A DNA stretch of 64,000 nucleotides from Rhynchopus sp. YZ270_cl-10 (GCA_964035575.1 OZ037836.1:806001-870000), one strand, 5' to 3'; counted from the stretch's first letter, positions 12,820 to 41,440 are shown. The notes: a model not told the origin generated them from the sequence alone. Translations and numbers: made by a program.

Positions 12820-14721
12820 TCACATGCACACACATTTGCACTTAGTATCCTCCACGAGTCTACCGCTATCGCCATGCACATAGTCTGACACAACACTGCT
12901 CGATCCGGTGACGTTGATGCTGCTTGTGGGTATGTTGCATCCTTTTAGGAAGCCTGTCCCAATGTGCTGAACAGTAGTCAACCCAGATAAATCAAGTGTT
13001 TGCAATGTGTTGCAGTTGCGCAGGAAGTCGCTCCCTATTAGCCTCACATTGCTCCACCCAGAAATATCCAGTGTGGTCAATGAGGTGCAGTTGAAGAGAA
13101 AGTAGTAATTAACCTGCGTCACATTGTTCCACCCAGACAAGTCAAGGTTTTGCAATGCGGTGCAGTCGGAGAGAAAATAGTCCCCTATTTGCGTCACATT
13201 GCTCCACCCAGAAATATCCAGTGTGGTCAATGAAGTGCAGTTGGCGAGGAAGTACCCACCGACCCGCATCACATTGTTCCACCCAGACAAGTCAAGGGTT
13301 CGCAATGCGGTGCAGCAGGAGAGAAAGTAGTCCCCCATTTGCGCCACATTGTCCCACCCAGAGAAGTCGAGAGTTCGCAATGCAATGCAGTTGTACAGAA
13401 AGCAGTACCCTATTTGCGTCACATTGTTCCACCCAGACAAGTCAAGGCTTTGCAATGCGAGGCATTTGGAGAGGAAACTGTTCCCAACCTGCCTCACATT
13501 GCTCCACCCAGAAATATCCAGTGTGGTCAATGAAGTGCAGTTGGAGAGACAAAACTCAAGGAGAGTCACATTGCTCCACCCAGACAAATCAGCAGTGTGC
13601 AATGAGGTGCAGTCCCAGAGTAGGTGCTTATTAACCCGCGTCACATTGCTCCACCCAGACAGGTCAAGGTTTTGCAATGCGGTGCAGGAGGAGAGAAAAG
13701 ACATTCCCATCTGCCTCACATTGCTCCACCCAGAAATATCCAGTGTGGTCAATGAGGTGCAGCTGGCGAGGAAGTAGTCCCCTATTTCCGCCACATTCCA
13801 CCCAGAAATATCCAGTGTGGCCAATGAAGTGCAGCTGGCGAGGAAGTAGTCCCCTATGTGCGCCACATTGTTCCACCCAGGCAAGTCAAGGGTTCGCAAT
13901 GCGGTGCAGGCGCAGAGGAAGTACTTCCCTATTTGCGTCACATTGTTCCACCCAGAAATATCCAGTGTGGTCAATGAACTGCAGTTGGCGAGGAAGCCGT
14001 TATCAATCTGCCTCACATTGTTCCACCCAGAAATATCCAGTGTGGTTAATGATTTGCAGTTGGAGAGAAAGTACTCATCAACCCGCGTCATATTCGTCCA
14101 CCCAGACAAGTCAAGGGTTTGCAATGCTGTGCATTTGGAGAGAAAAGAACTTCCCACCTGCGTCACATTGTTCCACCCAGAAATATCCAGTGTGGTCAAT
14201 GAGGTGCAGTTGGCGAGGAAGTACTGCTGAAGGAGTGTCACATTGCTCCACCCAGATAAATCAGCAGTGTGCAATGAGGTGCAGTTTTGGGCGAAACGGC
14301 TTCCTACGTGAGTCACACCTGGCACACCACTGAGATCAAGCTCTTCGAACTTGCCACGTGACAAGAAGTAACGGGGGATCTCAGTAACAACCTCCGCCTG
14401 CAGAAACAAATGAATCAGCTTGGGATCTGCAAGAATTCTGAACCTCTCTGACGTCAGCCTTGTCTCACCCAAGTCACGAAGAGCTGCAATGGCGTCATCC
14501 TTCTGCGACTTCGTCTTCGTCAGCACAACTGTGTCCCCAGCACTCAGCTGCGTGATGTAGTCTCCTTCGGCCAGCAGCTTCCCTCCGAAGCTCATGTCAA
14601 AGCCGTCTTCGCACAACTCTGCTGCAGACGCCACCTTCCGCCGTATGTCCGCAGTTGTATCATCCACACCCACCTCGACTGTGTACTTCTCTCCGTCAAA
14701 GCTCTTCACACATATTTCCAT
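12820..14721 (-). CDS. Ubiquitin-like + long BspA-type LRR protein (~18 repeats of ~26 aa) with a C-terminal CaaX motif, copy B
   Basis: N-terminal Ubl (MEICVKSFDGEKYTVEV...RRKVA...LSAGDTVVL). Repeats LxxCTSLTTLDISGWxNVxxIGxxF. Ends KCKCVCM. Confidence 0.9.
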   Translation of the reverse strand: MEICVKSFDGEKYTVEVGVDDTTADIRRKVASAAELCEDGFDMSFGGKLLAEGDYITQLSAGDTVVLTKTKSQKDDAIAALRDLGETRLTSERFRILADPKLIHLFLQAEVVTEIPRYFLSRGKFEELDLSGVPGVTHVGSRFAQNCTSLHTADLSGWSNVTLLQQYFLANCTSLTTLDISGWNNVTQVGSSFLSKCTALQTLDLSGWTNMTRVDEYFLSNCKSLTTLDISGWNNVRQIDNGFLANCSSLTTLDISGWNNVTQIGKYFLCACTALRTLDLPGWNNVAHIGDYFLASCTSLATLDISGWNVAEIGDYFLASCTSLTTLDISGWSNVRQMGMSFLSSCTALQNLDLSGWSNVTRVNKHLLWDCTSLHTADLSGWSNVTLLEFCLSNCTSLTTLDISGWSNVRQVGNSFLSKCLALQSLDLSGWNNVTQIGYCFLYNCIALRTLDFSGWDNVAQMGDYFLSCCTALRTLDLSGWNNVMRVGGYFLANCTSLTTLDISGWSNVTQIGDYFLSDCTALQNLDLSGWNNVTQVNYYFLFNCTSLTTLDISGWSNVRLIGSDFLRNCNTLQTLDLSGLTTVQHIGTGFLKGCNIPTSSINVTGSSSVVSDYVHGDSGRLVEDTKCKCVCM

Positions 14722-15483
14722 GGTTTTGTGTCTCTCTGTTTTTATTCAGGTGATTTCAATTGGGGGTAAGAGTACGCAAGAGACAACAAACAGTGACAAG
14801 GGGAGAGGTCTTTTGTTTTGTTTTTGAAAGCTTCGTTGTATTAGTGTGGACACCCGAGGATGTGCAAAGTGTTGCACTTAGCCACCATCCTTTTGTTCAC
14901 TTGCCCTGCTGAGGCAGAGTGGCTGTTCTTCAGTTTTGTATTTTTTCCATGACTTTTCGGTTTTGTACACAACACACGAAGCGGTACGCGCACGGTTGTT
15001 AGGAAATAATACAGACCGAAATGTTTGGGCGGCTTCGGTTCGAATGATTGGAATTGCGTGTGAAACTCAGACATAAATACTGGCTCTTCTATCTTGTTCT
15101 TTTACTCATTGTTTTCCTTTCATTGCCCTTTGCTTGTGCTCCCCGACTCCAATTCAATCAACACTTACAGAGGGGGGCTAAAAAGTTATTAGCGTTTTTC
15201 AAAAAAAAAAAAAAAAAAAAGGGGGGAAATAGATGTTTGGCGTTATTGTTGTTACTGTGGTTAATTGTTTCTGTAATGCATTTGAACCTACTGCTCGCGA
15301 ATCATGTTCTGCTTTTTTGAAGACTCATAGTACCCTAGGACCGGCTTTATACACAGTACCGTCGAGGGACGTACTGTTGTCAACTATTCTACACTCTTTT
15401 TGTTCGTACTGATGGGGATACTGTCTTTCATACAGCAAACACGCCCAGCATTTGGATTCATGTTTATGCATGTGGCCCGCCGT

Positions 15484-16207: not shown

Positions 16208-17035
16208 TTAGGTTGCCGACCGCTCGGGAGATTCGTCTCTGCTTCGTTTCGGACGTGCTTCAACCACAAGCTTACTCAGCTTGCCGTTCCTCACTTCGTT
16301 GGACACAACACTGCTGCAGCCGGAAAGGTAAATGCTCGTCAACGAAGTACAGCGCGCAGCAAATTGCGTAGTGATAGTAGAAGTAAAAGGATGCAAACCA
16401 AACGACATCACATTCCTGAGTGGTGATAAATCCAGCGTTGTTAAGCTCGTGCAGGCGCCAAGAAAGCTCGCACCAACTTGCGTCACATTGCTGAATGCTG
16501 ATAAATCGATGGTGGTTAAGCTCTTGCAGCCCCAAAGAAAGCCGCTACCAATGTGCGTCACATTGCTCAACCCAGAGAGGTTGATACTTCTCAACGAGGT
16601 GCAGTCTGCCAGGAAGTTGGGTCCAATGTGAGTCACAATGGACTCAGCACTGAGATCAAGTCTCGTCAACGAAGAGCTTGACAAGAAGCAATTCGGAATG
16701 ACAGTCGCAACCTCCGCCTGCAGAAGCAAACACGCCACCCCAGGATCCCTCACCCTCTGCAACTTCTCGGCTGTGATGTTGGTCACACCCAACGCATGAA
16801 GCTCTGCAATGGCTTCTTGTTTCTGCGTTTTCGTGAGGATGATTGTGTCACCAGCACTCAGCCGCATCATGTCCGCTCCTTCTCCCATCGCTTCGTCTCC
16901 GAAACTCATGCAAAAGCCGTCTTCAGGCAACCCCATTGCAGACGCCACCTTCCGCCGCAAGCCCTCCACTGTGTCATCTTCACCCACCTCGACTGTGTGC
17001 TGATTCGCTCTGAAATCTTCGAAGTGCACGTCCAT
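16208..17035 (-). CDS. Ubiquitin-like + short LRR protein, copy C
   Basis: Intact ORF from the MDVHFEDF ATG at 17035. About 4 LRRs; basic tail RPKRSRDESP. Confidence 0.85.
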   Translation of the reverse strand: MDVHFEDFRANQHTVEVGEDDTVEGLRRKVASAMGLPEDGFCMSFGDEAMGEGADMMRLSAGDTIILTKTQKQEAIAELHALGVTNITAEKLQRVRDPGVACLLLQAEVATVIPNCFLSSSSLTRLDLSAESIVTHIGPNFLADCTSLRSINLSGLSNVTHIGSGFLWGCKSLTTIDLSAFSNVTQVGASFLGACTSLTTLDLSPLRNVMSFGLHPFTSTITTQFAARCTSLTSIYLSGCSSVVSNEVRNGKLSKLVVEARPKRSRDESPERSAT

Positions 17036-17870
17036 TTGTTTGTTGTGGTTTTGTGTTCTGATCTCTGTGTGTGGTGGTGGGGTGTGGAGGACAACAAGCC
17101 TGCAGTCCTTTTCAATGAAGGGTTGAAGGGGAGGGGTTCTTTGAGTGGTCAGCAAAGTGTGAAGAAATAAAGTGGCTTTGAATGGGTGAAGCAAGACAGG
17201 CAAGTTGCCGGCTGCGTGGAGATCACACACGACACGCCTATTCACGTCACGATGAGGCTGGCCGAACGGTTAGGTTGCGATGCCACAGTGATCCGGGTAC
17301 TGCGAAGTGCATACAACCTACCGTTGCAGAAGCATTGCTGCAACGGCTCCGTCGGGGAAGCCTTCATCAGCAGGTAGCACCGCACAGGATGAAGATATAT
17401 AAACGTACCTCGCGTGTGGTGCTATTTAGCTGAGCAATGATGTAGCCCTTAGGCACCATTTCTTGCAGGTTCAAAAGGGGGAACGGTGCATGTGCATCCT
17501 CCATTCTCGCATTGGAACCGTGCAGGTGCAGCATCTGTGACCACAAACAGTACATAAGTGGAAATATTTTGGGTGTGGACCGCAAAAGCAAGTCAAAAGT
17601 GCAAGTAACGGTAAAAAACGACATTTTTTCCCAATTTCACCCCAAGTACAGCCCACCGGACATCCGGAAAAACGATACATTTTTTATCAATTTTTGTGTG
17701 TTTTGGTAGCCCCTCACTACCTCGAATCCATTCTGTCCTGAAACAAAGACCCCAAATCACCCCAAATAGAAACAAAACAAAAAGAAACAAAACTTATAAG
17801 ATGAATGTGCCTCCGTGCACACACAACGCACCCAGAATGCGATCACCAAGGCTGAGGGTGCGATCCTCAA

Positions 17871-18692
17871 TTAGGTTTCCGACCGCTCGGGGGATTCGTC
17901 TCTGCTTCGTTTCGGACGTGCTTCAACCACAAGCTTACTCAGCTCGCCGTTCCTCACTTCGTTGGACACAACACTGCTGCAGCCGGAAAGGTAAATGCTC
18001 GTCAACGAAGTGCAGCCCTCAGCAAATTGCGTAGTATGAGTGAAAGGATTCAAATCAATCGACGTCACATTGCTGAGTGGTGATAAATCCAGGGTGGTTA
18101 AGCTGCTGCAGGTCGCAAGGAAGCCCACACCAACCTGCGTCACATTGCTGAGTGCTGATAAATCGATGCTGGTTAAGCTCCTGCAGCCGGAAAGGAATCC
18201 CGCACCAACCTGCGTAACATTGCTCAACCCAGAGAGGTCGATACTTGCCAACGAGGTGCAGTAGTATAGGAAGCTGTGTCCAATGCGAGTCACAATGGAC
18301 TCAGCACTGAGATCAAGTCTCGTCAACGAAGTGTGTGACAAGAACCAATTCGGAATGACAGTCGCAACCTCCGCCTGCAGAAGCAAACACGCCACCCCAG
18401 GATCCTTCACACTCTCCAACTTCTCGGCTGTGATGTCTGTCACACCCAACGCATGAAGCTCTGCAATGGCTTCTTGTTTCTGCGTTTTCGTGAGGATGAT
18501 TGTGTCACCAGCACTCAGCTGCGTCATGTCCGCTCCTTCTCCCATCGCTTCGTCTCCGAAACTCATGCAAAAGCCGTCTTCAGGCAACCCCATTGCAGAC
18601 GCCACCTTCCGCCGCAAGCCCTCCACTGTGTCATCTTCACCCACCTCGACTGTGTGCTGATTCGTGTCGAAACCCTTGATGTTCAGGTCCAT
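17871..18692 (-). CDS. Ubiquitin-like + short LRR protein, copy D
   Basis: Intact ORF from the MDLNIKGF ATG at 18692. Tandem duplicate of copy C, including flanks. Confidence 0.85.
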   Translation of the reverse strand: MDLNIKGFDTNQHTVEVGEDDTVEGLRRKVASAMGLPEDGFCMSFGDEAMGEGADMTQLSAGDTIILTKTQKQEAIAELHALGVTDITAEKLESVKDPGVACLLLQAEVATVIPNWFLSHTSLTRLDLSAESIVTRIGHSFLYYCTSLASIDLSGLSNVTQVGAGFLSGCRSLTSIDLSALSNVTQVGVGFLATCSSLTTLDLSPLSNVTSIDLNPFTHTTQFAEGCTSLTSIYLSGCSSVVSNEVRNGELSKLVVEARPKRSRDESPERSET

Positions 18693-18983
18693 GTCTTTGT
18701 TGTGGTTTTGTGTTCTGATCTCTGTGTGTGGTGGTGGGGTGTGGAGGACAACAAGCCTGCAGTCCTTTTCAATGAAGGGTTGAAGGGGAGGCAGGCATGA
18801 GAATAAGGCCCGGACCCCGGACCCCGGACCCGGCCCCCCGGAACCCGACACCCCCCTACCCTACTCTTGCTCCCTTCCCACCCTCTAAGAACTTGTCCAT
18901 TTTGGAAAAGTGACCCCACCATTGGCCGCACGGATTCCGAAAATGCAAATGCCGGTGTTTTTTGGTATTTTCACTTTGCACTC

Positions 18984-20004
18984 TGCCCGGCACTTTGCCC
19001 GGCACCCTGCCCGGCACCCTGCCCGGCACCCTGCCCGGCACCCTGCCCGGCACCCTGCCCGGCACCCTGCCCGGCACCCTGCCCGGCACCCTGCCCGGCA
19101 CCCTGCCCGGCACCCTGCCCGGCACCCTGCCCGGCACCCTGCCCGGCACCTTGCCCGGCACCTTGCCCGGCACCTTGCCCGGCACCTTGCCCGACACCTT
19201 GCCCGGCACCTTGCCCGACACCTTGCCCGGCACCTTGCCCGGCACCTTGCCCGGCACCTTGCCCGGCACCTTGCCCGGCACCTTGCCCGGCACCTTGCCC
19301 GGCACCTTGCCCGACACCTTGCCCGGCACCTTGCCCGACACCTTGCCCGGCACCTTGCCCGGCACCTTGCCCGGCACCTTGCCCGGCACCTTGCCCGGCA
19401 CCTTGCCCGACACCTTGCCCGGCACCTTGCCCGACACCTTGCCCGGCACCTTGCCCGGCACCTTGCCCGGCACCTTGCCCGGCACCTTGCCCGGCACCTT
19501 GCCCGGCACCTTGCCCGGCACCTTGCCCGGCACCTTGCCCGGAACCTTGCCCGGCACCTTGCCCGGCACCTTGCCCGACACCTTGCCCGGCACCTTGCCC
19601 GGCACCTTGCCCGGCACCTTGCCCGGCACCTTGCCCGGCACCTTGCCCGGCACCTTGCCCGGCACCTTGCCCGGCACCTTGCCCGGCACCTTGCCCGGCA
19701 CCTTGCCCGGCACCTTGCCCGACACCTTGCCCGGCACCTTGCCCGACACCTTGCCCGGCACCTTGCCCGGCACCTTGCCCGGCACCTTGCCCGGCACCTT
19801 GCCCGGCACCTTGCCCGGCACCTTGCCCGGCACCTTGCCCGGCACCTTGCCCGGCACCTTGCCCGGAACCTTGCCCGGCACCTTGCCCGGCACCTTGCCC
19901 GACACCTTGCCCGGCACCTTGCCCGGCACCTTGCCCGGCACCTTGCCCGGCACCTTGCCCGGAACCTTGCCCGGAACCTTGCCCGGCACCTTGCCCGGCA
20001 CCCT
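18984..20004. repeat. 12-bp minisatellite (TGCCCGGCACCY)n, ~85 units
   Basis: Directly visible, with variant units GACACC and GAACC. Confidence 0.97.
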
Positions 20005-20634
20005 GTTAAACCCCGACACCCCCACCCATTCCCAGCACCAACACATCCACAACAGAAATTTTACTATGTTATCACCCCAGGCAGCTGTACATGACAGCCT
20101 GTCCGGCACCCCCGCTGTCAAGAGGGGGTCCCGAGAAAGCCCCATTTGTGAATCTTTACATAGATTAGAGTCAGCTTAGAGATCCCCTCACCCCACCCCA
20201 CACCCAACGTGTCGTTCAGCACTCCAAAAAACCGAGACCCCCTCACCCTCACCCCCACCCCCTCCCTAGTAAACTTGTTTAAGCAGCTCTGCTGCGTCTT
20301 GGGGGTCTCTCGATTATATATTTTAGGCTTCGCGTCCTGCATGTTTATTGTCCACTTGCATCTGCAAGGTTGGAAGAGGGTAACAGGGGAAACTCATTAA
20401 AAATCATTCACTCACTCATCAGGATTTTTTGTGTTTCCCCGGTCTCACCCTCCGTACGTTAACTTCGCATAGTGTTTGCCAAAAAATTAAAAGATTGGGG
20501 CGGTAGGGTTTTTTATTCGGATTTGCGTTTTTTGCTTGTTGCTCTTATATAGGGAAAGTCAAAACACACCACCTTCATCAGGAATTTTTCCACAAATTTG
20601 TTTCCCCGGTGTGTTTTCCTTCCCTCGTACGAAT

Positions 20635-21663
20635 ATGGACTTGACAGCTGAGTTTGAGGGGCGCAAGGCCTGTCACTTCAAGGTGAGTGAAGTGATGCGC
20701 GTATGTTGTGCGGGAGCGCCAGATGTGGTGAAGACGGCGCTGAAGGATTCCTTCTTGCCGGGGGACTACATCCTGGCAACCCTGGCAGGATTGGGGGGTG
20801 TGGTGACGGAGAGCGACCTGCGGCAATTGGTGATTGAGGTCACCAGGTCGAATGAGGCGGCGTGGGAGAAGACGAAGCCCCGCCGTCTCGCCCTCTTTCT
20901 GGCCACGGTGAGGAACGGCCTTGGGGACGTGACCTTTGCGCAGTTGCTGAGTGGCGAGGACGCGGCATCTTTCCCTTGCTCTGAGGACGTATCTTCTCCG
21001 AAGGCCTCTGTGGAGACAGAGGAGCAGGCAGTGGCGGCCGAGGCAGTGAAGAAACGTTTTGTGTTTGCGCCGGTGGTACGCGAGACTGATGGGCAGGACC
21101 GCATCGCCGCTTTCGAGGCCGCACAGGACTTCCCAGACGACCAACCGGACGACCGCAGCGACATCCGCAGTGACGACATGGGGCCCGACGCTGAAACCGT
21201 GGCACTCAATCCGACGCGTTGGCAAGAACTCGACAGGTTTGGCCAAACCGAACTGTTGGAGCAACTCGCAAAATACGTGCCTGATAAGGAAGGGGACACA
21301 CGGGACGCGGCACGCGGAACTCTGAACCTGATCCAGAAGATTCTGAAGGGGAAGAACATGGGGGACCTCCTCGTGATCCTCCTGGACGACCTGCTATGTG
21401 TGCACTACCGTTTCACGATGGGGCTGGAGGCGGCCAGGGCGTTCCGTTCCCGTACATCGATGGGCACTTCGACCACCCCCCAACGCCGTGCAGCGATGCT
21501 GGCAGCGACGGCAGCGAATGCGCGCTTTGCAGGCACGAAGAGACGCCACAGCACCACCTCCTCCAACAACTACAACGACAGGGGATCGAAGCGCACGAGG
21601 TTCGACCCATCGGCGACCTTCGGACGGAAAGGAGGCAAAGGGGGGAAGCCTTTTCGCCAGTAG
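20635..21663 (+). CDS. Gag-like protein
   Basis: First ORF of the element (ATG 20635); basic/Gly-rich C-terminus RKGGKGGKPFRQ. Confidence 0.7.
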   Translation: MDLTAEFEGRKACHFKVSEVMRVCCAGAPDVVKTALKDSFLPGDYILATLAGLGGVVTESDLRQLVIEVTRSNEAAWEKTKPRRLALFLATVRNGLGDVTFAQLLSGEDAASFPCSEDVSSPKASVETEEQAVAAEAVKKRFVFAPVVRETDGQDRIAAFEAAQDFPDDQPDDRSDIRSDDMGPDAETVALNPTRWQELDRFGQTELLEQLAKYVPDKEGDTRDAARGTLNLIQKILKGKNMGDLLVILLDDLLCVHYRFTMGLEAARAFRSRTSMGTSTTPQRRAAMLAATAANARFAGTKRRHSTTSSNNYNDRGSKRTRFDPSATFGRKGGKGGKPFRQ

Positions 21664-22942
21664 CCACCACCGCGTCAACATCAACAACAACACCATCTAC
21701 AACTCCGGGGGAAACAAGGGTCAAAATACTGGGTCGAACAGAACGAACTATGGGGTGAATCGACGTCAAAAATCACATCAACTACAACAAACAAAAAGGG
21801 ACGAGGGACGACAGAAGGGAGAAAAGGGACGAACAGGGACGAGGAACTCCCCAAGGAACTGGGTCACAGTGCGACAGAGCGACACGGGGCGAACAGGGCC
21901 GAAACTGGTGACGGACCCGGTGACCCCGCCCAAGGAGGTGCTGCCCCCACCACACCTACCGGAGCACATGTCGCTTGGGACGAGGAAGATGTCGCTGCAG
22001 AGGGCGAAAGCTGTGGAGGACTTGGTGTTTGCGGAACGAGACGGGAAGGTACTGGGGAAGCTGCTGCACCGGACGCTGGAATGGGACCAGCTCGGTCAGT
22101 TTGCGAACGCCCCGAAGTACCGGGCGGAGCAAGACCGGGTCTTCGACCGGTTTATGGAGTGGCGTGCGACGCAGCGCGACGGCCTCCCCCCCGACGACCT
22201 CATCATCGGCTACGCGCACAGGATGCTGGCATCGGCTTCTCCGAAGACTGTACAGACCTACGTGGAGGTGATCGTGCGAAAGTCGCTGAGCATGGGCATG
22301 CGAGGAGTTCGAACGCGGAAGCTGCTGGAGGCAAAGAAAGGACTTATACGTTTGAGCACGATGATCCGCCCGCGACAGGCACCACCAATGACCACCACAG
22401 AAGCTTCAACTGCAATAGAGACGCTGTGGTCGCAAGGGAACAAGCCGGCTGCAGCACTGGCCGCGATTGCATGGGTATCGAGAGCTCGCGTGCCCGACCT
22501 GCGCTTCATCACGAAGGTAGATTGGAGGGAATTCCGCTCGGACACACCGCAGAAGCTGGACACCGTGGGGGGGGAATTCTTTGCGCGGGAGAAAGGATGC
22601 AAGGGATGGCGGCCCCCCATCAACATGCCTCCAGGGAGACTGACTGCGGTAGCGGTGAGATTCATGCGAAGCATCAAGGACGAAAAACAGCTAGTCTTCG
22701 GCGGGAATTCAAATGTGTACGAAAGCCTGAAACGTGCTATGAAGAAGGTGTTTCCCAACGCAGCATGGCTACATTCGTTACGACGGGGGGCGATCCAGGA
22801 GGTGGAGAAGACGGGAGTGGAAAGAAGCGAGCTGCGGGAGCTCCTCAGACACGCGAACGAAGCAGAGACGGTGCGTTACCTGAGGACGAACACACGGGGT
22901 CGACGAACGCTGGAGGCGAATCTGCTGTCTTCTCTTCAGTGA
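21398..22942 (+). CDS. Tyrosine recombinase (+1 frame relative to gag/pol; real start uncertain)
   Basis: Catalytic set ARVPDL (R), REKGCK (K), HSLRRG (HxxR), LLRH (H), VRYL (Y). Confidence 0.9.
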   Translation: MCTTVSRWGWRRPGRSVPVHRWALRPPPNAVQRCWQRRQRMRALQARRDATAPPPPTTTTTGDRSARGSTHRRPSDGKEAKGGSLFASSHHRVNINNNTIYNSGGNKGQNTGSNRTNYGVNRRQKSHQLQQTKRDEGRQKGEKGRTGTRNSPRNWVTVRQSDTGRTGPKLVTDPVTPPKEVLPPPHLPEHMSLGTRKMSLQRAKAVEDLVFAERDGKVLGKLLHRTLEWDQLGQFANAPKYRAEQDRVFDRFMEWRATQRDGLPPDDLIIGYAHRMLASASPKTVQTYVEVIVRKSLSMGMRGVRTRKLLEAKKGLIRLSTMIRPRQAPPMTTTEASTAIETLWSQGNKPAAALAAIAWVSRARVPDLRFITKVDWREFRSDTPQKLDTVGGEFFAREKGCKGWRPPINMPPGRLTAVAVRFMRSIKDEKQLVFGGNSNVYESLKRAMKKVFPNAAWLHSLRRGAIQEVEKTGVERSELRELLRHANEAETVRYLRTNTRGRRTLEANLLSSLQ

Positions 22943-24624
22943 TTCGGGGTCTGCAGGAGGGCTATCGGGGGATATTGGAGGAACATGAGAATGAGGTATC
23001 GGGTGAGCAGTCCGGAGAGTCTTCCCTGACGTGGCCCGATTTGGGTAAGCCACCCCCCAGACAGGCAAAGCTTGACTCCTTCCCGACCTCCACCATCAAC
23101 GTGCAACGTCTGTCGCAACTGGCGACGGAAGCGGGTATGGACCCACATTTCGCAAGCTGGATGACGAACCCTAACGCTATTTCGGAGGTGAAGTCAGGCA
23201 AGATCCCCATCCCAGGACCGAAATCCAACCTCCCTCCCTCTTTTGTGTCGGCATGTTTGAAGGCTGGTGTCTGCATGAAGGTGACGAAACGTGAGTGTGT
23301 CCGCGGAGTGGTCAAGGTGTTTACGGTTCCGAAGTCTGATCCGCTGATTCACCGCACGGTGATTGACGGCCGTCCCATCAACTGCGTGATGCCAAAGCCC
23401 CCAAAGTTCCACCTCTTCGCCCCGCCGCACCTGTTCCACATCCTGAAGCACAGGAAGGCTACGTGGTTGGCAAAAATAGACCTGAAAGGATTCTTCCACC
23501 AACTTCCTATCCACAACAACGTCTCCTCTTTCTTCTGTTTTCGCGTCGGGCAAAGCTGGTACAGATGGACTCGGGTGCCGATGGGCTGGTCTGTGGCCCC
23601 CTACATAGCACAGAACACAGCGGAAGCGCTTGTGGGTAGAGCAGTGGGCGTGCGTGCGATGGTGTACTTGGACGACATCCTTGTCTTCGGAGAGTCTTGT
23701 GAAGGAGTTCAGGCATCGGTAGCAGGGATCCTGGAACGGTTCAGTTTTGCAGGAGCAGAAATAAACGAGAAGAAATCGTGCCTCAGCCCAGTGCGGACTT
23801 TGGAGTACATTGGTGTGGAGTGGTCACCTGAGCAGGGTGTATTGCGGTTTCCGAGCACGTGGAGGGAGAAGGTGATGCTGATTTTTGTTTCATTTGCGTC
23901 TGCGTGGAAGTTGTCGATTCGGCGCATATGGCAGATGGTGGGTATTGCTATGCGAGTGCTACATGTCCTGGGCGTTCCGCTGTGTCACTTCGACGCCATA
24001 CTCCGGTGCCTCAGTGGGGGGTCCACGAAGATCGTGAGAGGCGAACTGGACTGGGACGTAGAGGTGGTGATCCCGGATGACTTGCGGAGGGAGATGGCTG
24101 AGATTGTCGATGCTTTCGTGCGCCCCATTCGGGATTTTTCATTGCCGGAGCCGGCTTCTGCATGGGACACGGTGGTGTGGACGGACGCGAGTACGACTGG
24201 TTGGGGCATTGTGTGGCAGCACCTGGACGATGCCGAGGCCGGGGCGGACTGGGGACAGTGGGTGCAGGCTGCGACGCACCGCGACATCTTCCTGCTGGAG
24301 GCAGAAGCTGCGATGAAGGGCATCAGAGCTGCATTGGAGAGCGGTTCCTCAAAGAGTGGGACCCTCCTGCTGGTGGACAACGAGGGCTTGGCGCATGCGA
24401 TCAGACGGGGACATACAAAGTCTCGTCTAGGGAACCTATTTTTACGTTATATTTTTTCTTTTGTGCAACCACACCACCTTCGTGTTGAGTGGATCGCCTC
24501 AGAGGAGAACAGCACTGCGGATCAGTTATCCCGGCGCACACATCTCTCTGAGGGAACGATAGCGGTACCGCTGTGTTGGGACCGTGTTCACAAGAAGGTT
24601 GATTCTTTTGGTTTTTCAGAGTGA
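21664..24624 (+). CDS. Reverse transcriptase + RNase H (DIRS-class); the frame is open from directly after the gag TAG
   Basis: KIDLKGFFHQ, PMGWSVAP, YLDDIL; RNase H WTDAS, LLEAEA, LVDN, NSTADQLSR. No stop in frame between 21664 and the 22081 ATG (checked codon by codon). Confidence 0.92.
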   Translation, partial: PPPRQHQQQHHLQLRGKQGSKYWVEQNELWGESTSKITSTTTNKKGRGTTEGRKGTNRDEELPKELGHSATERHGANRAETGDGPGDPAQGGAAPTTPTGAHVAWDEEDVAAEGESCGGLGVCGTRREGTGEAAAPDAGMGPARSVCERPEVPGGARPGLRPVYGVACDAARRPPPRRPHHRLRAQDAGIGFSEDCTDLRGGDRAKVAEHGHARSSNAEAAGGKERTYTFEHDDPPATGTTNDHHRSFNCNRDAVVAREQAGCSTGRDCMGIESSRARPALHHEGRLEGIPLGHTAEAGHRGGGILCAGERMQGMAAPHQHASRETDCGSGEIHAKHQGRKTASLRREFKCVRKPETCYEEGVSQRSMATFVTTGGDPGGGEDGSGKKRAAGAPQTRERSRDGALPEDEHTGSTNAGGESAVFSSVIRGLQEGYRGILEEHENEVSGEQSGESSLTWPDLGKPPPRQAKLDSFPTSTINVQRLSQLATEAGMDPHFASWMTNPNAISEVKSGKIPIPGPKSNLPPSFVSACLKAGVCMKVTKRECVRGVVKVFTVPKSDPLIHRTVIDGRPINCVMPKPPKFHLFAPPHLFHILKHRKATWLAKIDLKGFFHQLPIHNNVSSFFCFRVGQSWYRWTRVPMGWSVAPYIAQNTAEALVGRAVGVRAMVYLDDILVFGESCEGVQASVAGILERFSFAGAEINEKKSCLSPVRTLEYIGVEWSPEQGVLRFPSTWREKVMLIFVSFASAWKLSIRRIWQMVGIAMRVLHVLGVPLCHFDAILRCLSGGSTKIVRGELDWDVEVVIPDDLRREMAEIVDAFVRPIRDFSLPEPASAWDTVVWTDASTTGWGIVWQHLDDAEAGADWGQWVQAATHRDIFLLEAEAAMKGIRAALESGSSKSGTLLLVDNEGLAHAIRRGHTKSRLGNLFLRYIFSFVQPHHLRVEWIASEENSTADQLSRRTHLSEGTIAVPLCWDRVHKKVDSFGFSE

Positions 24625-26974
24625 TATGCATTTGTGATTTCTTTTATTCTTTCTCTTTTTCTCTTGTCCTTTCTTCAAAAGAGTGTTGTGGTCGTACACA
24701 TGTCAATCGGACTGGAAACGATGTACCAAAGCGGTATATGGTGTGTTTTCCTTCCCTCGTACGTCACAATAAACGAAACCCCTCCTCACATTGTTTTTGT
24801 TGCGCTTTCAGGACCTCATCGACGGATCACTATTTGTACACCAGATCTCCACCCCCACCCCCACCCCTTGTGAGAATAGCCACCCAGGACCCCGGACCCG
24901 CACCCCCCTAACCTTATTCTCATGCCTGAGGGGAGGGGTTCTTTGAGTGGTCAGCAAAGTGTGAAGAAATAAAGTGGCTTTGAATGGGTGAAGCAAGACA
25001 GGCAAGTTGCCGGCTGCGTGGAGATCACACACGACACGCCTATTCACGTCACGATGAGGCTGGCCGACCGGTTAGGTTGCGATGCCACAGTGATCAGGGT
25101 ACCAGCCTTCTCTTGGGGTGATGGTGTGTACGTGCAGCCCCCTTCCACCATCTAGGATAGGATCTGTGTATCTCAGCGGGTTGAGGCTCGAAACAGAAAA
25201 CGCTGTCAGAAAAGACGGTTGCGAGGGGGATGATGTCGTCACACCATTTTGCTTGTTTGCAGGAAATGAAAGTAATAAGAGTGACAGAAGTGGCAGCAGT
25301 AATGTTGCGAAGGTGATTGGAAACAAAAGGAAACCCTGGTAAAAGGGAACCTTTTTTTAAATGTGGCTGCGTAGATTATTTGCTGCACTCAGAGAAAGAC
25401 AACTGAGTTCCCTCCAATTTAGATGAACAGCACAGAATAGAATAACATGACGGAAAGAATACGAACCTGAAAAACCAAAATAAATACTACAGGTGTCAAA
25501 TAGCTATCTTCACCCACACAGGAAAAACGGGAAACGAAACAGGGGGATAGTTTGTCACTTGTACGCTTCCACCGAAAAAGAAAACTTGAAAGATGAAAGT
25601 GCCTTCCGTGCACACACAGCTGAGGGTGCGATCTTTGATTATGTTGACAACTACTTCACTGCTCCATCCTACTTTCTCAAGCGCCACGACGGATGCGGAC
25701 CCACACGATTGAGGAGCTCCTGCTGTCTGATGACGCGTGGTACCTGCATGTTCCGCAAATACTCAACGTCATGCGAACCCTACTTGGAACTCTTTCTGGA
25801 CAAACACGAAGCCGCTTTGCCACAAGCAGAACCCATGGCATGCCCAGAATCACTGCGCTAGGACGTAGGAAGCAAACCTCGTCCCCTGGCAGACCCTCCA
25901 CCACGGGGAGGTGCTGCCCTGCCACCAACACACCACGTCGTCATTGTGCGTGTCTCTGTCGCTTCTGGCTTTGCTCGGGGGACTCGTCTCTGCTTCGTTT
26001 CGGACGTGCTTCAACCACAAGCTTACTCAGCTTCCCGTTCCTCACTTCGTTGGACACAACACTGCTGCAGCCGGAAAGGTAAATGCTCGTCAACGAAGTG
26101 CAGCCCTCAGCAAAATGCGTAGTATTAGTAAAACTACTCAAACCAATCGACGTCACATTGCTGAGTGGTGATAAATCCAGGGTGGTTAAGCCGCTGCAAC
26201 TCATAAGGAAGCCCGAACCAACTTGCGTCACATTGCTGAGTGGAGATAAATCGATGCTGGTTAAGCTCGTGCAGCCCAAAAGAAAGACGCTACCAATGTG
26301 CGTCACATTGCTCAACCCAGAGAGGTCGATACTTCTCAACGAGGTGCAGAATGACAGGAAGTTGTGTCCAATGTGAGTCACAATGGACTCAGCACTGAGA
26401 TCAAGTCTCGTCAACAAAGAGCTTGACAAGAACCAATTCGGAATGAAAGTCGCAACCTCCGCCTGCAGAAGCAAACACGCCACCTCAGGATCCTCCACAC
26501 TCTCCAACTTCTCGGCTGTGATGTCTGTCACACCCAACGCATGAAGCTCTGCAATGGCTTCTTGTTTCTGCGTTTTTGTGAGGTAGGGGTCCGTTTTAGG
26601 TCTCTGGCAGGCCGGGCCTTCTTTCTGTGGCCTTCCCAACCAAAAGACCCCCAAAAAACACAGGTACCTGCTGCGTTTAGTGGCACTTTACCCCAGTCCC
26701 TGGAACAGATCGGCAAGCCGACCAGCCCAGGTATGCATGCCAACACTACTGGGGGTGCACTGTTCGATAGCATAAAAGAAAAGTCAAAAAGTCAAAAAGA
26801 CAAGAAGGTCAAACAAAATAGGTACTTCGAACAGGGCTGACAGGAGGGGATTCTCACCCGAGGTTCGGTGCCTGTCAGGCTGCGATTAGTGGTTCTGGGT
26901 GATTCCCTTCTTCCGTCCAGGCCCGAACCGGAAACATTAACCTCCGTTTTTCGAAACAATAAAAGTAAAAATGA

Positions 26975-27099: not shown

Positions 27100-28145
27100 A
27101 AAAAATTGATTGTTTCCAGCACACGCGGACTGTGTCAGTGTGTGATGGTATATGAGTATTGCCTGAAGTACAGAAAATGGGAGTGTCGGTGGCGGAGCAC
27201 AAAAGAGGTAAAATGAGAAACATATCGGGTGGGGTCTCTGATCTAATCTGTGCGACGAATATATTTCCCCTAACACGCCATGTTTGGCCAGGGCCTCTCC
27301 AGCGCGTCAGTTGCAAAATATATCCGTTTCGCTTGATCAGATCTCGACCGTTTGTTGCATTGCACGCTTCCACTCAGGACCCTAAGGACCCTCGGATCGA
27401 AGGGACGCCGCGCGAACGATGAATGGGATTACGCTCCGCTGCTAAACCGGTAGTGTGATCGGGTAGTCTGCCACCACGCCTCTCGTGTACTTGTCTGCTT
27501 TTTGCTCCAACGTCGGTACCCATTCACATGCGACTTGGATGCGGGCGCCGGCCGCTAGGGTGAAAAGTTCAGCGATCACGAAATTTGAGCGGTAGTCTGA
27601 AGAGTGGCCCCTCTGGAGGCTGTGTACAGCCGGGAGGTTGTCGACCATCAGCCTGAGTCGCGTAGTATGTACCGATCTTGCCGCAAGTGCTACAGCCTGC
27701 TGCCCGGCATCAGTGCTCCCATCCTTCGCAGACTCCGACGGTAATCCTGCACCATTTGGGACTCCGCCAGGCGTGCGTCCCCTGTCCGCCGTAACGCCGC
27801 CGCCACGTCCATCGTATATTGCAGCGCCGAACTACTCCGTCTAAAGACCTTTTCTTTTCCACCCAATATATGAGCGCCACTTCGTGTGAGATTGTGCATG
27901 TGTGTTTCTTTTTTTTTTTTTTTTTGAAAAAATTGATTGTTTCCAGCACACGCGGACTGTGTCAGTGTGTGATGGTATATGAGTATTGCCTGAAGTACAG
28001 AAAATGGGAGTGTCGGTGGCGGAGCACAAAAGAGGTAAAATGAGAAACATATCGGGTGGGGTCTCTGATCTAATCTGTGCGACGAATATATTTCCCCTAA
28101 CACGCCATGTTTGGCCAGGGCCTCTCCAGCGCGTCAGTTGCAAAA
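26975..28145 (-). mobile_element. Internally deleted split-direct-repeat (A1-B1-A2-B2; PAT/Ngaro-type) YR retroelement retaining an RNase H C-terminus
   Basis: A = 27926-28145 and 27099-27318; B = 27315-27373 and 26975-27033. ORF 27442..27648 VDNLPAV..LQRG...EWVPTLEQKADKYTR is DIRS-type RNase H. Confidence 0.85.
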
Positions 28146-33769: not shown

Positions 33770-36700
33770 CTAGTGCATGGTGATGCGCACAGGTGTGAAG
33801 CTCTTTGCCTGCCACGCGTCGCGGAAGCGTTCGTACACAGGCCCCTCGCCTGTTGCAAACAGTGCCTGTGCCTCAGCTTCGAGGCCGTGTTCCTGTGTGG
33901 TGGTTCGTATTTGAAGGGTTGTTAACAATGGTGTACAGGAAGAATAAATGATGGTTTGTGTGAGTCATGTTAGGTCATGTTGTGTGGAATGTCTTAAATC
34001 GCAAATATCGCTCTAAGATGAAGAGCATAAGCACAAAGGCTACGGACAGCAGTGATGCTGAAGACACATACAGCGTCATCTGTTAGCACCTAGACATACC
34101 TTGAACAGCGACTTAAATATCAGTGTCGCAACAGTGTTCCACTGCCTCATCGGGTCCTTCTTCGAAGCCTCCTCCAGCTGGTACATCCACTCGTCAGTGT
34201 TCGACACGTCTCTGTACAGAGAAGTTCAAACAAACACATCGGCTTCGGAAGCTTCCTGAAAGTCACCCCTTCCACCACCTTCAACACAAACGACGTCTCC
34301 ACCTCGGCATACACTACATGGTCCGTAAGCACACCAAACTCACGCTCCCTGCAGTACCGCTCCAGCGCATAGGCCCACGAGATTATAGGTGACAGGAACG
34401 AAAACCTGCGCATCACAGACGTGCCCATGTTCCCGACACGTCCCTCCCCAGTCACAACCGACGCTGTCGTGTCCACACCCAGCTTCTTCGCAGTTTCACG
34501 GCAGATATGCGCAGAAGTGCACGCATGCACTCGGTGGTTGCCCCCGTGCGTCGCAGCGTTGAACGAACACGCGAACCTGTCACCCATAAACGGCTCCGTC
34601 ACACCCTTCTGCTTCGAGAACACAGCAACGAAGACCTCCAGCAGGTTCGAGTGCAGCTCCAACACCTCTGTGTCGGGCTTGTCCTCGCAGTGTCCGTGGA
34701 AGTCCTTGATGTTCACGACTGTGTAGGAGAAGCGTTTGTGCACCACTGCACACAGGAACGGGTTCAACGATCTGTCGAGACGCTTTGACGACTCATCCTT
34801 CTGTGACAGCGACGCTGAATGCGATGTTACAGACTGAGTAACACTTTTCCGGTCGGACACATCAGTGCTGATATCACCAAGCTGCACAGACTGCGGCATA
34901 AAGCTCTTGTACAGCTTCAGGTTCACAAGCATGTGCCCAATAGCGTGGTTCATCGTGCGCAGCTCACTGATGACGGACGTCTCGTCAGGAACGGTGCTGA
35001 TCTTCAGCACCGCTGCCTTGGCCATAAGCACCGCAGTGTCCTCAAACGGACGTGTCAGCACGTTGTTGAAGAGCATGAACACCACAACAGACGCCATCAC
35101 CAGCGCCACCATCACAAGGATCGTTCTGTTCGCCTTCTGCCGCAGTGCCTTGTTCGTGTTCTTCTCAAGAACGTCCAGATCCTGCAGTGTCCGCATGTTC
35201 GTCGCGTCGATCTTCCGCAGAATGTCCTCACGTGGGATCATCGTCGCAACGGTAAAGGGCTCCATCTCTCGTGTGTCGGAGTTTGTGTCAAACGTCCGTG
35301 TCTGCACAAGGAAGGACTTGCTCACGGGGTTGCGTCTCACTTCGTCAGAAGCATGCAGGAAGTGTGGCGTGTCTGGGAAGTACCTCCGCACAAAGGTCAG
35401 GCTGTCGATGCGACCCTTGAAGAACTGTCCCACGTAGTACGGGTTTGCATGGATACGCGCGTGAATAACAAGTTCAGACCCAGTGCGTGAGTCAGTGCCG
35501 TGAGCATGAAGTGTGCCGTTCACGTACAAGCTGCAACGTCCACCACCCATCACAGCTGTCACCGTTGTCCACGCACCCACAGGGAAGCCACGTCTCCCAA
35601 AGGCATCCACGTAAGGTGCTGTGCTGCACCCATACTGCAGAACAAACAGATAGATCTGCCCGTTCCCAAACAGACGGAAGTTCGTCTCCCCCACAAGCGA
35701 GTCTGTGAACAGACGAGGTGTGGTTGCACTTGGTGATGCTTCGTCGTACAGCACATCAGGCCTGATGCGCATGCTCACCATGAACTCCGTGTAGCGTGTG
35801 AAGTCTGGACGCAACATGCACTTCAGCACGGAGGCTGTGCTGGTTGTGTTCACAACACGCGAGGCGACACAACGACGTCCGTCTGCATGCACAAGCTCCG
35901 CATCGAACCCGTCGTACTTGCTCTTCCACGGCTCCCCTGCTGCACTCGCACGTGACCGCTCCACAACTGGCGCCTGCCGTGTCAGGTTCCTGTACACGTA
36001 CTGCACTGTCGACCCGTCAAACTCAAGCACGTCCTTCCCACGCTGTGTGTCGTGCACAACACAGTTCCCACACCCACCGTCACGCACCTCCGTTTCCCAG
36101 TGGTGCATGCTCGTGTCCACAGCAGCACCGTTCTCCACACTGAACTTTGCGAGTGTTGTGTGCGGCGACTCTATCCAGTAATCATCCTGGTCGAACTCCC
36201 CGTAGTGCTGCACCCATCTGTCCTCTGCTGGCGTTGCTGCTGCACCCGCGTCCAGGTAGCGTGCAAGGCCACTCACATTCATCGCGGGGTGCTCGTCAAT
36301 GGTGTACAGGGAGTACACACTCTTCAAGGTTGGCGCAAACATCATGGCTGTCAGTTCTCTGTCTTTTGCTGTCCCTGTGTTGAAGCCACCCAGAAGCGCT
36401 CTGTCGTGTCTGTCCACCACAAGCACAGTCATGTTCGCCAGGCTTGAGCCTCCAAGCCGTGCTGTGTCAATGGCCAAGGCAATGAAGTCCTCAAGACTCT
36501 CCTGCACAGCAATCGTCCCGTGGTACGGCATTGTGCTGCCCTCCATGTTCGACCCGGTCAGTGCCATGTAGGCAACGATTGGTGGACTGTACTCCCACAC
36601 TGCCGAGTGCAGCTGCACACGTCCTGTCTTCCAGATCACCTTCTTGACCCCGAACTGTGTGCCTCGTGTGACTGCGAGAGGATCGCCGCCCAAGTTGCCG

Positions 36701-38806
36701 ATGTACTCAGTGCTTGCGTTAAGACGCGAACGCGGGTAAATGTAGTAAGGTTCTGTGCTGGGCTCCGCTTCGGAGCCTTCAACCTTCTTGTATGAGAGCA
36801 GACCATACAGTCAACCAGCCTGTGTCTCCTGAATTGTCCCAACCACACCGTCGTCACGTTCCACGTCAGGTCTGTTGTCGTTCTTGATGCAATGGACAGC
36901 AGTGCACCCCATGTAGAAGCCACGTGTGGTGAACACACGCACAAAAAACTTGAAGTGTGTCATTACCGAGTTTGTAAACATCTCAAAAAACCGTGCCTGA
37001 ATGTGCCCAGCTCCCGTCGTAGTGAACACTCACAAAGCCGTTGTGTGTCATCATGACTCTGTCCTCCACTGCATTGAAGCCCACAGTCAGGCCGTCGAAG
37101 ATCTTGTCCATCACAATTGTGCGTGTGATGTTCGACAGCTCAATCGTGTTCTCCATCTCACTCATAACCAGTTTGTCTGCAACCTTCCGCCCGTTCGCCG
37201 TTGCTGTGTCTGTTGAGTCCTGCCCTGCAACGTGGACAAGAGAGAACGTCACAAGCGACGTGATCAGCAGCAGCGACACACTCACAGCCATGCTTGCCAC
37301 CTTCAGCGGGATCGCAAACCCAGACACAGCCATCTCCTCAGGCACCTCCACTGCATCACGGCGCTGCTTCACCACGATCCCTAACATCACCACTGCAGTC
37401 ATCACAACCACCACAAGACACACAACCGTCACAGTGTCGGTCAGGCCCAGATCGTCAGACGTGTCCTCCTCCTCAGCAACAGCCGCTACCTGCAGCGGTG
37501 GCGCCGTCATGGGCACAGTGTCCGACCAGTTCCCGTCAGTGAACGTGAGTGCATCAAGTGAGTAGCCAACACCAGGAATGTGCCTTCCACCACCCCGTGC
37601 GATCCACGCCATGAACTGTGCCGTCACCTTGCGTCCCACTGTGTGCACAGGGATCCCGACACGCATTGAGAATGCCTTCACTTTGTAGTACTCTCGCGAA
37701 CCGTATGTTGTCTTCGTCATGTACACAAACGCCGTGACACCACTTTCTTCAGCGTACCGTACCTGGTGCACAAGCGGACAGGAACTTTGGTAAGACGCAA
37801 AGACCATCTTCCCCTTGAGCGACGCAAAGTCTGAAGCAGCACAGCCCCAACGTGGCAGCTCTGTCGTGTACACTGCTTCGTCCTTCTGTGTCTCGAACGG
37901 AAGTGTCCGCACAAGCTGCAGAAGGGTCTCCCTCTTGCGTGGACGCAGGTCGTTCCCCATGACACACACGTGCTCTGCCTCACCAGGGATCCACATCGCA
38001 AGTGGACACTTCTCGCAGATGCGGTCCTGCTGTGCGTTGTCCACCACTTTGCATGTGTCTGCAAGGTCCACTTTGTTGTTGAAGCAGCCGTCCCACGGGT
38101 AGTCCTCAAGGTTGTCCAGGGCAGTCGGCGGCAGCTCAGAGCACTCAAACTTGATGTGGCCACGGACCCTTGCCCCGCTGTTCACAGCTGCTGCAATGTA
38201 GTCGGTTTCGTGTCTGTCTGCGTGCAGGAATGGGAAGTTCGTTGCTGTTGTGGAAGACGTGCCAGGTAGTGGCTCCCTTCGCTCTGTGAGGGAGTAGTCG
38301 CGCACAATGCCCACAGCAGCACCAGTCTGCTGCACAAGATCCTGCTTCACAACGTACTTGCAGCTACCTCGTGACACAATCACAATCTTCCCATCGTACA
38401 CCTTCCCGTCACCCAAGGAGTAGTCACTTGCCCTGCACCCACGATAGCTTCTCGACTTGATACTCTCGTTCCCGACCACAACAATGTCCATCTCCTTGTT
38501 GTTCAGTGGGTGGTATGCATCAATGTGCCCGTCGGGTGTCCACGGCTCGAACACGTTATCCGTAAGGCAGACCCACATCCCCGCCACCTCGGGCGGCTCT
38601 GTCACGACAAGCCGCACGGGACACTGGTAGTAGCAGTAGTCGTACAGCCGCCACGTGGTCCGGTTGCACATGATGTCCTTGCGCCAGCCATCGTAGATGT
38701 ACCGACTCGGCATCTCGGGGATGAACTTCCGGAGGCAGTCCTGACGGCGCACCGGACACTGCGGCTCTGCACCCCACGCAAGCAGCACCAGCACTGCTGC
38801 CAACAT
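33770..38806 (-). pseudogene. Disrupted paralogue of the PA-PA-LamG-HAMP-cyclase-like receptor; intron 33893-34099
   Basis: High identity to 41736-47731. 2-bp deletion at ~37000, in-frame TGA at ~36811 and a frameshift at ~34210. Last exon 33770-33892. Confidence 0.8.
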
Positions 38807-39952
38807 TGTGCTCACGTGGTTGTGAGGGAGCACACCTGCAGTGGTAGCTTTGAGTAGGGAACAGTGGGTGGACGAAGGCAAAAAGCAAAAAAAAAAAAAA
38901 AAATGCACGAGGGGCAGTCTCTACCTTCTTGTGGTAGGCGAATACAAGAAAAGGCACATCATAAGATGAGCAAGGATGAAAGAAGAATGAACTCACAACT
39001 TATTTTAAGTTTTTTTCGAAAACTGAAAAAGAAGTTATGAAAAAGGTTTCTTTCTCTTCAACTTAAACTACTACAAGAGTGCCGCTGCTGTGTACGGATA
39101 TCAGCAAGGCTTATTGGTGCTACCGAATCTAGTGTCGAAGATAAGATGGAGTATGTGACTCTGTCCCTCAAAGGCCTGCAAGACAGTGATAAGAAACAAG
39201 AGGGGTGCTGGAGGCTGCTAACCCGGTGGTAAATGAGAACGAAACGCAAGTGCTCTGCAGACTTCGTCATTTTCCGTTCACAAAAGAATCAGTTATAAAA
39301 TGCTCGAGAAGGCTCGTTAACTCTTTGCTTTGTTTTGGCTCAAAAGGCTAAAAACGGGAAGAGGATAAATTAAAGGTTGTTTATTGTTCGCTTCCAAAAT
39401 GAAATACCCCCCCCCCCCCCCCCCCCATTCTTTATTCGTTGTTGTTCAGTCCCGAAAACCCCCTCGAAAAACCCGCGTCCTGAAGTACGGGGGAGAGGTG
39501 GAGCAAAGGAGGGGAAAGGAGGAAACGGTAAGACCCAATGGCAGAAGAAAAAGGCGTCTTTCATGTCCAGACGTATTGTATGTTCGTACAAAAACAAAAA
39601 AAAGTACGTTTTTTTTCGTCACGTACTTTCTGCACCCCATAGTGGTGGCTCTCGCGTACATCTAAAGAAAAGGAAAGTTTATAAGATGCTCCTAAGCCTC
39701 TCCTGCTTAGTGACATTGAATCAAACGAAGGTCGTTCAGACAAATAAGAGTGCCGCTGTTAGTAGCGCAGCAGCCGGTCCTGATGAACACCTGACAGAAG
39801 TAACAGAGCATTACAAGAAGAGAAAAAGGATGAAGGATATCAAAATGCTCGAGAGACTCGTTACTCTTTGCTTGTTGCTCAAAAGGCTGAAAAACGGGAA
39901 GAGGAAAAATTAAGGTTGTTTGTTGTTCGCTTCCGCCAATTTTTTTTTTCCC

Positions 39953-40020
39953 CTGATAAATTGTTGGAGTAGTGTAGTTGCCTCGGGTTGTGTTGCCACA
40001 GTTGTGCACATCTCCACTGT
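39953..40020. repeat. Short (~65 bp) interspersed repeat; further copies at ~41473, ~49209 and ~50922
   Basis: tgataaattgttggagtagtgtagttgcctcg(g)ttgtgttgccacagtt occurs four times, all in the same orientation. Confidence 0.85.
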
Positions 40021-41258: not shown

Positions 41259-41440
41259 CATACTGTGCAGACGAGCCAAAGGTTTGTCGACGAACCTAAA
41301 GTTCGTCGTTTTGGTTCGTCGATGTTCGTCGACGAACCAAAAGTGTCACTTTTATAAGACCCTCCCACACGACGAACCAATGATTTGTCGATCTTCGTCC
41401 GACGAACATCGACGAACCAATGGCACGTCTGCACAGTATG
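41259..41440. mobile_element. MITE with CATACTGTGCAGACG TIR and gtcgacgaacc internal repeats
   Basis: Inverted termini catactgtgcagacg / cgtctgcacagtatg. Confidence 0.75.

Follow-up and report, generated by a model that had tools for sequence, protein, structure and literature searches.

A 64,000-nt stretch of DNA from Rhynchopus sp. YZ270_cl-10 (GCA_964035575.1 OZ037836.1:806001-870000), which as a whole is called the window below, carries an intact, multi-copy retrotransposon of the VIPER type, i.e. with a gag-like open reading frame (ORF), a tyrosine recombinase (YR) frame and a pol frame for reverse transcriptase (RT) plus RNase H, in that order. The pol frame is very likely translated from near the gag end, judging from its freedom from stop codons, and Pol is probably made by some form of recoding there. 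In the explanation that we favour, ribosomes finishing gag would enter both downstream frames at the gag end: slipping by +1 at CCU_UUU_CGC, they would make a 768-aa Gag-recombinase, and reading through a leaky UAG-C, a 1329-aa Gag-linker-Pol. We lean slightly towards the +1 slip as the source of the recombinase; the exact pair of events, which is the model of an earlier reading made from the DNA alone (the sequence-only reading), can be proposed only tentatively.

The gag 3' end is CCT TTT CGC CAG TAG CCA CCA, with the TAG at 21661-21663. This TAG is all that parts gag from pol, the same frame being open from 21664 to 24624 (986 codons). The YR frame, which is +1 to gag, crosses the junction as F-A-S-S-H-H-R and overlaps the pol frame over 1279 nt. 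On these points (gag end, single TAG, 986-codon open frame, YR at +1, overlap of about 1.28 kb) the sequence-only reading was confirmed. No reassignment of TAG in the host was apparent, 11 long frames of the window being open under the standard code and ending in TAA, TAG or TGA. Nothing unusual attaches to the 15 successive C-initial codons that follow the TAG, as runs of 13 and 12 occur elsewhere.

The openness of the pol frame is nonrandom. Its 425 overlap codons contain no stop, against 10.1 expected when the element's own synonymous codons are shuffled and 17.6 expected from the codon usage of the single-coding parts; under either null, none of 20000 shuffles of the overlap was stop-free. 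In the single-coding regions, 247 gag codons contain 11 stops in that off-frame and 559 RT codons contain 17. Most of the signal comes from AUG 22081 onward, where 11.2 pol-frame stops are expected. Upstream of this AUG, the first of the frame, the segment 21665-22081 is open as well, against 3.9-6.4 expected stops (probability of no stop, P0, of 0.0008-0.014). That the pol frame is stop-free also upstream of its first AUG is the strongest indication that Pol is entered near the gag end.

The junction is the same in all the copies seen. The gag cluster (four sequences on nine contigs) ends in KPFRQ in four cases out of four, with the stop at the same place, and the pol cluster (seven sequences on 10 contigs, six of them full length and one cut short inside RT) is open in all seven from AUG 22081 through the overlap. 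Contigs bridging the TAG are identical to the window at the junction in each of the five main runs, which come from two studies; two low-share runs had no junction-bridging piece among the pieces listed. The TAG is therefore common to the copies and is no private mutation. Copies with stops in the pol frame or without the slip motif, on which the sequence-only reading had agreed to fall, did not appear. Scans of viral contigs and genome contigs returned no relative, and metagenome contigs only distant elements (21-56% identity over the best segment), from which 30 loci are used below.

More was learnt from related families. Six of seven RT families, the window's included, have an open extension of 469-646 aa before a conserved LD[S/E]FP motif, the seventh being a single 576-aa protein; one search was limited to proteins above 1009 aa, which favours long extensions (families 5 and 6). 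The pol linker is open for 150-220 codons in families 2, 3, 5 and 6, and the pol frame is open beyond chance in six families. Identity to the window is 37-70% in the RT, 23-33% in the overlap read in the pol frame and 41% in the YR frame. As the YR-frame identity exceeds that of the pol frame, the recombinase would be the product under constraint and the pol frame would ride along free of stops, the pol-frame version of the recombinase region being likely a passive spacer. Families 2-7 are known from proteins, and only for families 3 and 4 could the gag-to-downstream phase be decoded from overlapping protein pairs (33900 tests gave 5 compatible pairs; 94316 further tests added no family), that of family 4 being the majority reading of copies that differ by homopolymer indels. 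In family 4, CAG TAG is forced at the gag stop and the recombinase frame is apparently -1 with its own AUG; forced-stop matches located in the part of P0051 outside the pol frame were set aside. Pol lies at -1 to the recombinase in the window, in family 4, in six metagenomic loci and in 4/4 Bodo saltans copies. The recombinase label of ORF2 in four metagenomic loci (L001, L003, L011 and L028) was given from position and from motifs seen by eye, Pfam having failed to recognise it. The gag-recombinase linkers (P0002, P0044, P0050/51, P0080, P0098) consist of tandem peptide repeats that are unrelated from family to family and show in-frame length variants among copies.

Several observations bear on the +1 slip. 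UUU_CGN is the +1 motif of influenza PA-X and of plant amalgaviruses, where it works at about 1-2% in lysate (PMC5052127). Occurrence of TTT_CGN by chance has a probability of 0.036 in the last 25 gag codons and of 0.14 in the 95-codon overlap. In family 3, the overlapping protein pair forces CAT TTT CGT 11 codons before the gag stop, within the +1 overlap. Phe-Arg is present among the last 25 gag residues in five of 12 other gag families, versus 1.9 expected (P 0.008, or 0.04 for 40 residues). Pol is at +1 in four distinct DIRS-type loci; CCN TTT CGN is present in two of these, CCC TTT CAG in one and neither in the last, the chance of TTT_CG being 0.1-0.27 in each. Codon bias flips from the gag to the YR phase at 21607-21658, and that of the linker is best in the YR phase (-0.003 versus -0.15, standard error about 0.06). 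The slip at UUU_CGC foreseen by the sequence-only reading thus gained modest independent support, but Phe-Arg is missing from the last 40 gag residues of the sister family (RT identity 70%) and of six others of the 13 families. Overall, support for the predicted +1 slip at CCU_UUU_CGC is moderate. The sites of the DIRS-type elements L012, L014/L015 and L020 (CCN TTT CGG, CAG and CGA) are 37-67 codons before the gag stop, in a +1 gag-pol overlap, and L014 has a strong structure 3' of its TGA (z-score, z, of -4.2).

What speaks for read-through of the TAG is its position, the C on its 3' side and the frequency of single stops in the group: one stop only stands between gag and the next in-frame ORF at 12 of the 14 junctions examined among the 30 metagenomic loci, so that read-through looks common there. 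If it occurs in the window element, it is likely a basal leak.

A series of results weighs against this pair of events. None of the read-through types I-III, as set out in PMC3542737, fits the junction: UAG-CCA-CCA lacks CARYYA, the UGA-CGG/CUA with a stem-loop, and the UAG-purine spacer with 3' structure. There is no 5' AA at the gag stop, shuffled sequences fold better than the RNA 3' of it (z +2.2 to +3.1), and no long-range RNA partner of the junction was found beyond shuffles; the in-frame stops of the metagenomic loci are mostly followed by structured RNA (z at or below -1.5 in 6/8). Pol is at +1 to gag in family 3 and probably in family 4, and the gag-to-pol phase is therefore not conserved. 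The read-through of the sequence-only reading is thus left with no known stimulator and with families in which it would not lead to pol. As to the slip, the +1 overlap of family 3, and probably that of family 4, leads to pol and not to the recombinase; the codons behind Phe-Arg were decoded for two families only; and Phe-Arg gag tails may simply be RNA-binding. The drop in codon bias sits mostly in one 40-codon CAA-rich stretch. Openness of the YR frame is at chance level in the final 95 codons of gag (P0 0.58-0.80), as it is, given the pol protein, in the linker (P0 0.45-0.56). Finally, the copies are near-identical and may all stem from one genome or from the window's own source, so that they exclude a private mutation but are no measure of conservation.

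The linker also contains a canonical -1 heptamer, G_GGA_AAC at 21709, missed by the sequence-only reading. Within 20635-24624 no other such heptamer is in phase with a coding frame, and a slip on it would lead from the recombinase frame into the pol frame. Where the opening of pol lies at -1 and ahead of the gag stop, as in eight metagenomic loci, an in-phase G_GGA_AAC or T_TTA_AAC is present every time; in the tree these loci amount to about four independent lineages, and the single-locus chance is 0.04-0.34. Their hairpins, 6-7 nt downstream in most, have z of -2.8 to -3.9 in five of the eight and of -0.8, -1.6 and +1.2 in the others. These metagenomic heptamers are apparently -1 frameshift signals of YR retrotransposons, of which no report was found in the literature searched. 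Those at L001:1104-1110, L003:438-444, L004:749-755, L011:1811-1817, L006:1654-1660 and L013:1698-1704 usually have one stop before the next in-frame ORF. The motif [GK]KQ in the pol linkers of families 1, 2, 3 and 6 is compatible with a heptamer and was not counted, being seen at the protein level only.

The heptamer raises the possibility of a serial shift: a +1 slip at UUU_CGC into the recombinase frame followed by a partial -1 return at G_GGA_AAC into pol, with the TAG bypassed and Gag >> Gag-YR >> Gag-Pol. We hold this to be unlikely, even though a sole in-phase heptamer in 4 kb, placed 46 nt after the stop, the eight metagenomic loci, mostly with a hairpin, and the recurrent -1 position of pol relative to the recombinase all speak in its favour. 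Folding (pseudoknot-free) shows no stimulatory hairpin 3' of the window heptamer (z +1.5 to +1.9), and codon shuffling gives an in-phase heptamer in this linker by chance at 0.11-0.37, so that the heptamer may be a relic. Moreover, two low-rate events would multiply, and the equivalent sites of families 2-6 are seen as protein only, with their codons undecoded. The 17 codons between the TAG and the heptamer are stop-free without significance (P0 0.17), and consequently entry at the TAG and entry at 21715 are not told apart, which again counts against the read-through.

Internal AUGs on trans-spliced RNA are a possible source of the recombinase and, less well, of Pol. In a hybrid of the two modes, Pol would come from TAG read-through and the recombinase from AUG 21968 or 21989 on an internally trans-spliced mRNA, UUU_CGC being a vestige of an older +1 entry to pol. 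A C-rich tract followed by an AG (21963) does lie immediately before the AUG where the conserved domain begins, much as host genes of the window have in their 5' regions; according to the literature consulted, a spliced leader is added in diplonemids; the openness of the YR frame requires no selection; and the family 3 site leads to pol. Yet the tract is T-poor (2/20), the family 4 recombinase has no Met at the start of its domain and upstream of the AUG the linker has a codon bias that fits the YR phase better, all of which makes the hybrid doubtful, about as much as the serial shift. Improbable, too, is an expression without any recoding, where a sub-genomic trans-spliced mRNA would give the recombinase from AUG 21968 or 21989, and Pol would start either at AUG 22081, reached through leaky scanning, or at the GTGA that ends the recombinase frame, through re-initiation. 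The context of AUG 21968 is weak and that of AUG 22081 strong (G at -3 and +4), a combination that would account for the frame being open from 22081 onward; in families 2 and 3, an ATG-A overlapping the recombinase stop is forced at the place equivalent to GTGA. Left unexplained, however, are the openness upstream of 22081 and the 150-220 open linker codons of the four families cited above. AUG 22081 is also not conserved, and re-initiation needs no open overlap, has no UGGGA within 100 nt of either stop and would start in the window on GTG, not ATG. According to the last alternative, an error, it was mutation or misassembly of the window copy that produced the TAG or set the recombinase one base off gag. 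A TAG could come from CAG in a Gln-rich stretch, and long-read assemblies of family 4 contain homopolymer frame changes (P0050, P0051), but this reading is largely refuted and must be considered most improbable: the stop is common to the four gag sequences, the five runs match the junction exactly while minor variants nearby (21549, 21584-21643) are kept in the same contigs, and the gag matches in a representative library are at most 436 aa in 17 cases out of 17.

The preferred reading, a +1 slip and a TAG read-through, can be widened. One 70-nt junction might give three proteins by stacked recoding, with +1 at UUU_CGC and then either UAG read-through or -1 at G_GGA_AAC, and would then be one of several interchangeable solutions of YR retrotransposons (-1 plus read-through, +1 plus read-through, or +1 then -1). 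We regard this generalisation as speculative and rather unlikely. If it is true, it would explain the long stop-free overlaps across the whole DIRS order.

The coordinates are collected in Table 1. The gag-like ORF1 owes its name to its position and has no Pfam match; two of its homologues that were looked up carry species names, Rhynchopus euleeides and Diplonema papillatum. The product of the YR frame matches Pfam PF00589 at E 0.014, and its homologue P0035 (41% identity) matches this Pfam family at E 0.005. In the alignment of the two proteins R...HxxR...H...Y is visible, which we take to be the tyrosine recombinase motif. The predicted structure is poor (predicted local distance difference test, pLDDT, 52.7), and Cre, XerA and integron integrase are near the top of the fold ranking, none of them significantly. 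The evidence for a tyrosine recombinase is thus weak in each single test but concordant. The pol frame matches RVT_1 (E 2e-21) and, weakly, the RNase H-like RVT_3 (E 0.002). No integrase or protease Pfam match was obtained for the proteins of the element, and no DDE integrase was seen. In an RT tree (quick search), the element and six related families join metagenomic gag-ORF2-RT loci (Shimodaira-Hasegawa-like approximate likelihood ratio test, SH-aLRT, 94-95), and gag-RT-YR loci and long terminal repeat (LTR) elements fall apart from this group.

Table 1. Features of the retrotransposon and of its gag-end junction (positions in the window)
Feature	Position	Strand	Remarks
Whole retrotransposon copy, ~4.6 kb	~20259..24858	+	Empty-site joints 20251->24859; contig loose ends 20259/24850
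C-rich CACCCCCACCCC site, insertion place of the retrotransposon	both ends		C-rich repeats at each end
24-nt direct repeat, left copy	20608..20631	+	Directly 5' of gag AUG
24-nt direct repeat, right copy	24740..24763	+	
Gag-like ORF1, 342 aa	20635..21663	+	ATG start, TAG end
YR frame	open 21377-22942	+	+1 to gag; conserved domain from ~21968; AUGs 21518, 21968, 21989
Predicted +1 slip site CCT TTT CGC, into recombinase frame	21649..21657	+	Sequence motif
Gag stop TAG-C, candidate read-through site into pol frame	21661..21664	+	Common to all copies seen
Pol frame, 986 codons	21664..24624	+	~470-codon extension over recombinase, then RT + RNase H; first AUG 22081
Low-complexity linker, unstructured	21664..21967	+	Open in pol and recombinase frames
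Canonical -1 heptamer G_GGA_AAC, recombinase-frame phase	21709..21715	+	46 nt after gag stop; slip would enter pol frame
C-rich tract + AG (21963), candidate internal trans-splice acceptor before AUG 21968	21940..21964	+	Resembles 5' regions of window host genes
GTGA, recombinase stop overlapping pol-frame GTG	22939..22942	+	

A few other features of the element and its surroundings can be mentioned. Summed contig depth is about 10 times higher over the element ends (20264-20631 and 24692-24858) than over the body, and positions 20607 and 24740 are joined (20607->24740) across the 24-nt repeat, which corresponds to a short end-only derivative; contig depth was not used as copy number. The motif at 20608-20634, just before the gag AUG, matches family 2 (FSFPRT / FPSLVRH in the upstream frames) and has an imperfect second copy at 20416-20459; a conserved cis element is the likely explanation. 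Just 5' of the retrotransposon (18900-20000), a 12-bp unit is repeated in tandem about 90 times. Elsewhere in the window there are an RNase H-like fragment of another element (27481-27651, minus strand, 29% to the window pol), repeated genes at 16208-18860, 25941-26687 and 12823-14745 (minus strand) that look by eye like a ubiquitin-like domain with leucine-rich repeats, and an 8.9-kb tandem duplication at 34234-46407.

The overlapping frames of YR retrotransposons have long been described; what is lacking is a tested account of how the inner frame is translated, and the element, together with the metagenomic loci, supplies specific short sites to mutate. If gag-end recoding is true, it would bring virus-style recoding to a whole retroelement order and an influenza-type +1 signal to a euglenozoan; the serial +1/-1 route would be a rare design; and, should internal AUGs be the answer, the element would be an ordinary new VIPER-type family. 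The literature searched, mostly non-subscription (besides the papers cited here, the accessible parts of PMC3783388, PMC9210276, PMC3266345, PMC7192593, PMC5633606, PMC12440569, PMC8226300 and PMC10161547), contained no account of YR retrotransposons being recoded at the gag end, though earlier remarks on gag read-through are possible. The remark of the sequence-only reading that it knew of no such description for YR retrotransposons holds, as far as searched, for the gag end, but not for the rest: the overlap is known in VIPER, and Poulter and Butler (2015), in a passage quoted in PMC13003380, surmised that programmed frameshifting takes place at the RT-to-YR overlap in Ngaro, so that the general idea of recoding is not new.

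The closest known system is VIPER (Ribeiro et al. 2019, PMC6681497), likened here by layout and not by sequence. It shares the gag-YR-RT/RNase H order and the overlap of RT and YR ORFs (also noted in PMC12278014), ORF3 covering at least half of the YR ORF in 12 of the 15 copies tabulated in Additional file 3 of PMC6681497; the end-only derivative of the window element recalls SIRE. The nested layout is thus already known for VIPER, and its expression route is undescribed as far as searched, the main text of PMC6681497 giving no mechanism. In that table, the phases could be derived from four B. saltans rows only, as 10 of the 15 rows give lengths that are no multiple of 3 and another row contradicts itself; these four copies show all three gag phases, two of them having YR at +1 and pol in the gag frame, and pol is always -1 to YR. 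VIPER differs by its split direct repeats A1...B1-A2-B2 of 57-414 bp, whereas the window element has only the 24-nt repeat (in 20150-25000); these repeats are also absent from several copies tabulated in PMC6681497. No CCHC box was seen in the window element, and its host is likely a diplonemid, the hosts of VIPER being kinetoplastids.

With PA-X and the amalgaviruses, as described in PMC5052127, the junction shares an in-frame UUU_CGN within the overlap of ORF1 and the +1 ORF, a signal that apparently requires no structure and whose slip puts UUC into the P site, GNN then standing in the A site; it differs in that the motif is one codon before the stop, in a retrotransposon, and is predicted to lead to a recombinase. 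The likeness to gammaretroviral gag-pol read-through (type III in PMC3542737) is the one UAG between in-frame gag and pol. Here, though, there is no purine-rich spacer, pseudoknot or protease to cut the fusion, and Pol lies 470 codons past the stop, behind an overprinted gene. The DIRS1-like features, i.e. the gag-RT/RH/MT-YR order and inverted terminal repeats with an internal complementary region (ICR), were not found in the element, nor was a methyltransferase domain detected by Pfam. DIRS-1 and Ngaro do have documented long YR/RT overlaps, but their order is gag-RT-YR, and the RT tree places the window element with the gag-YR-RT loci.

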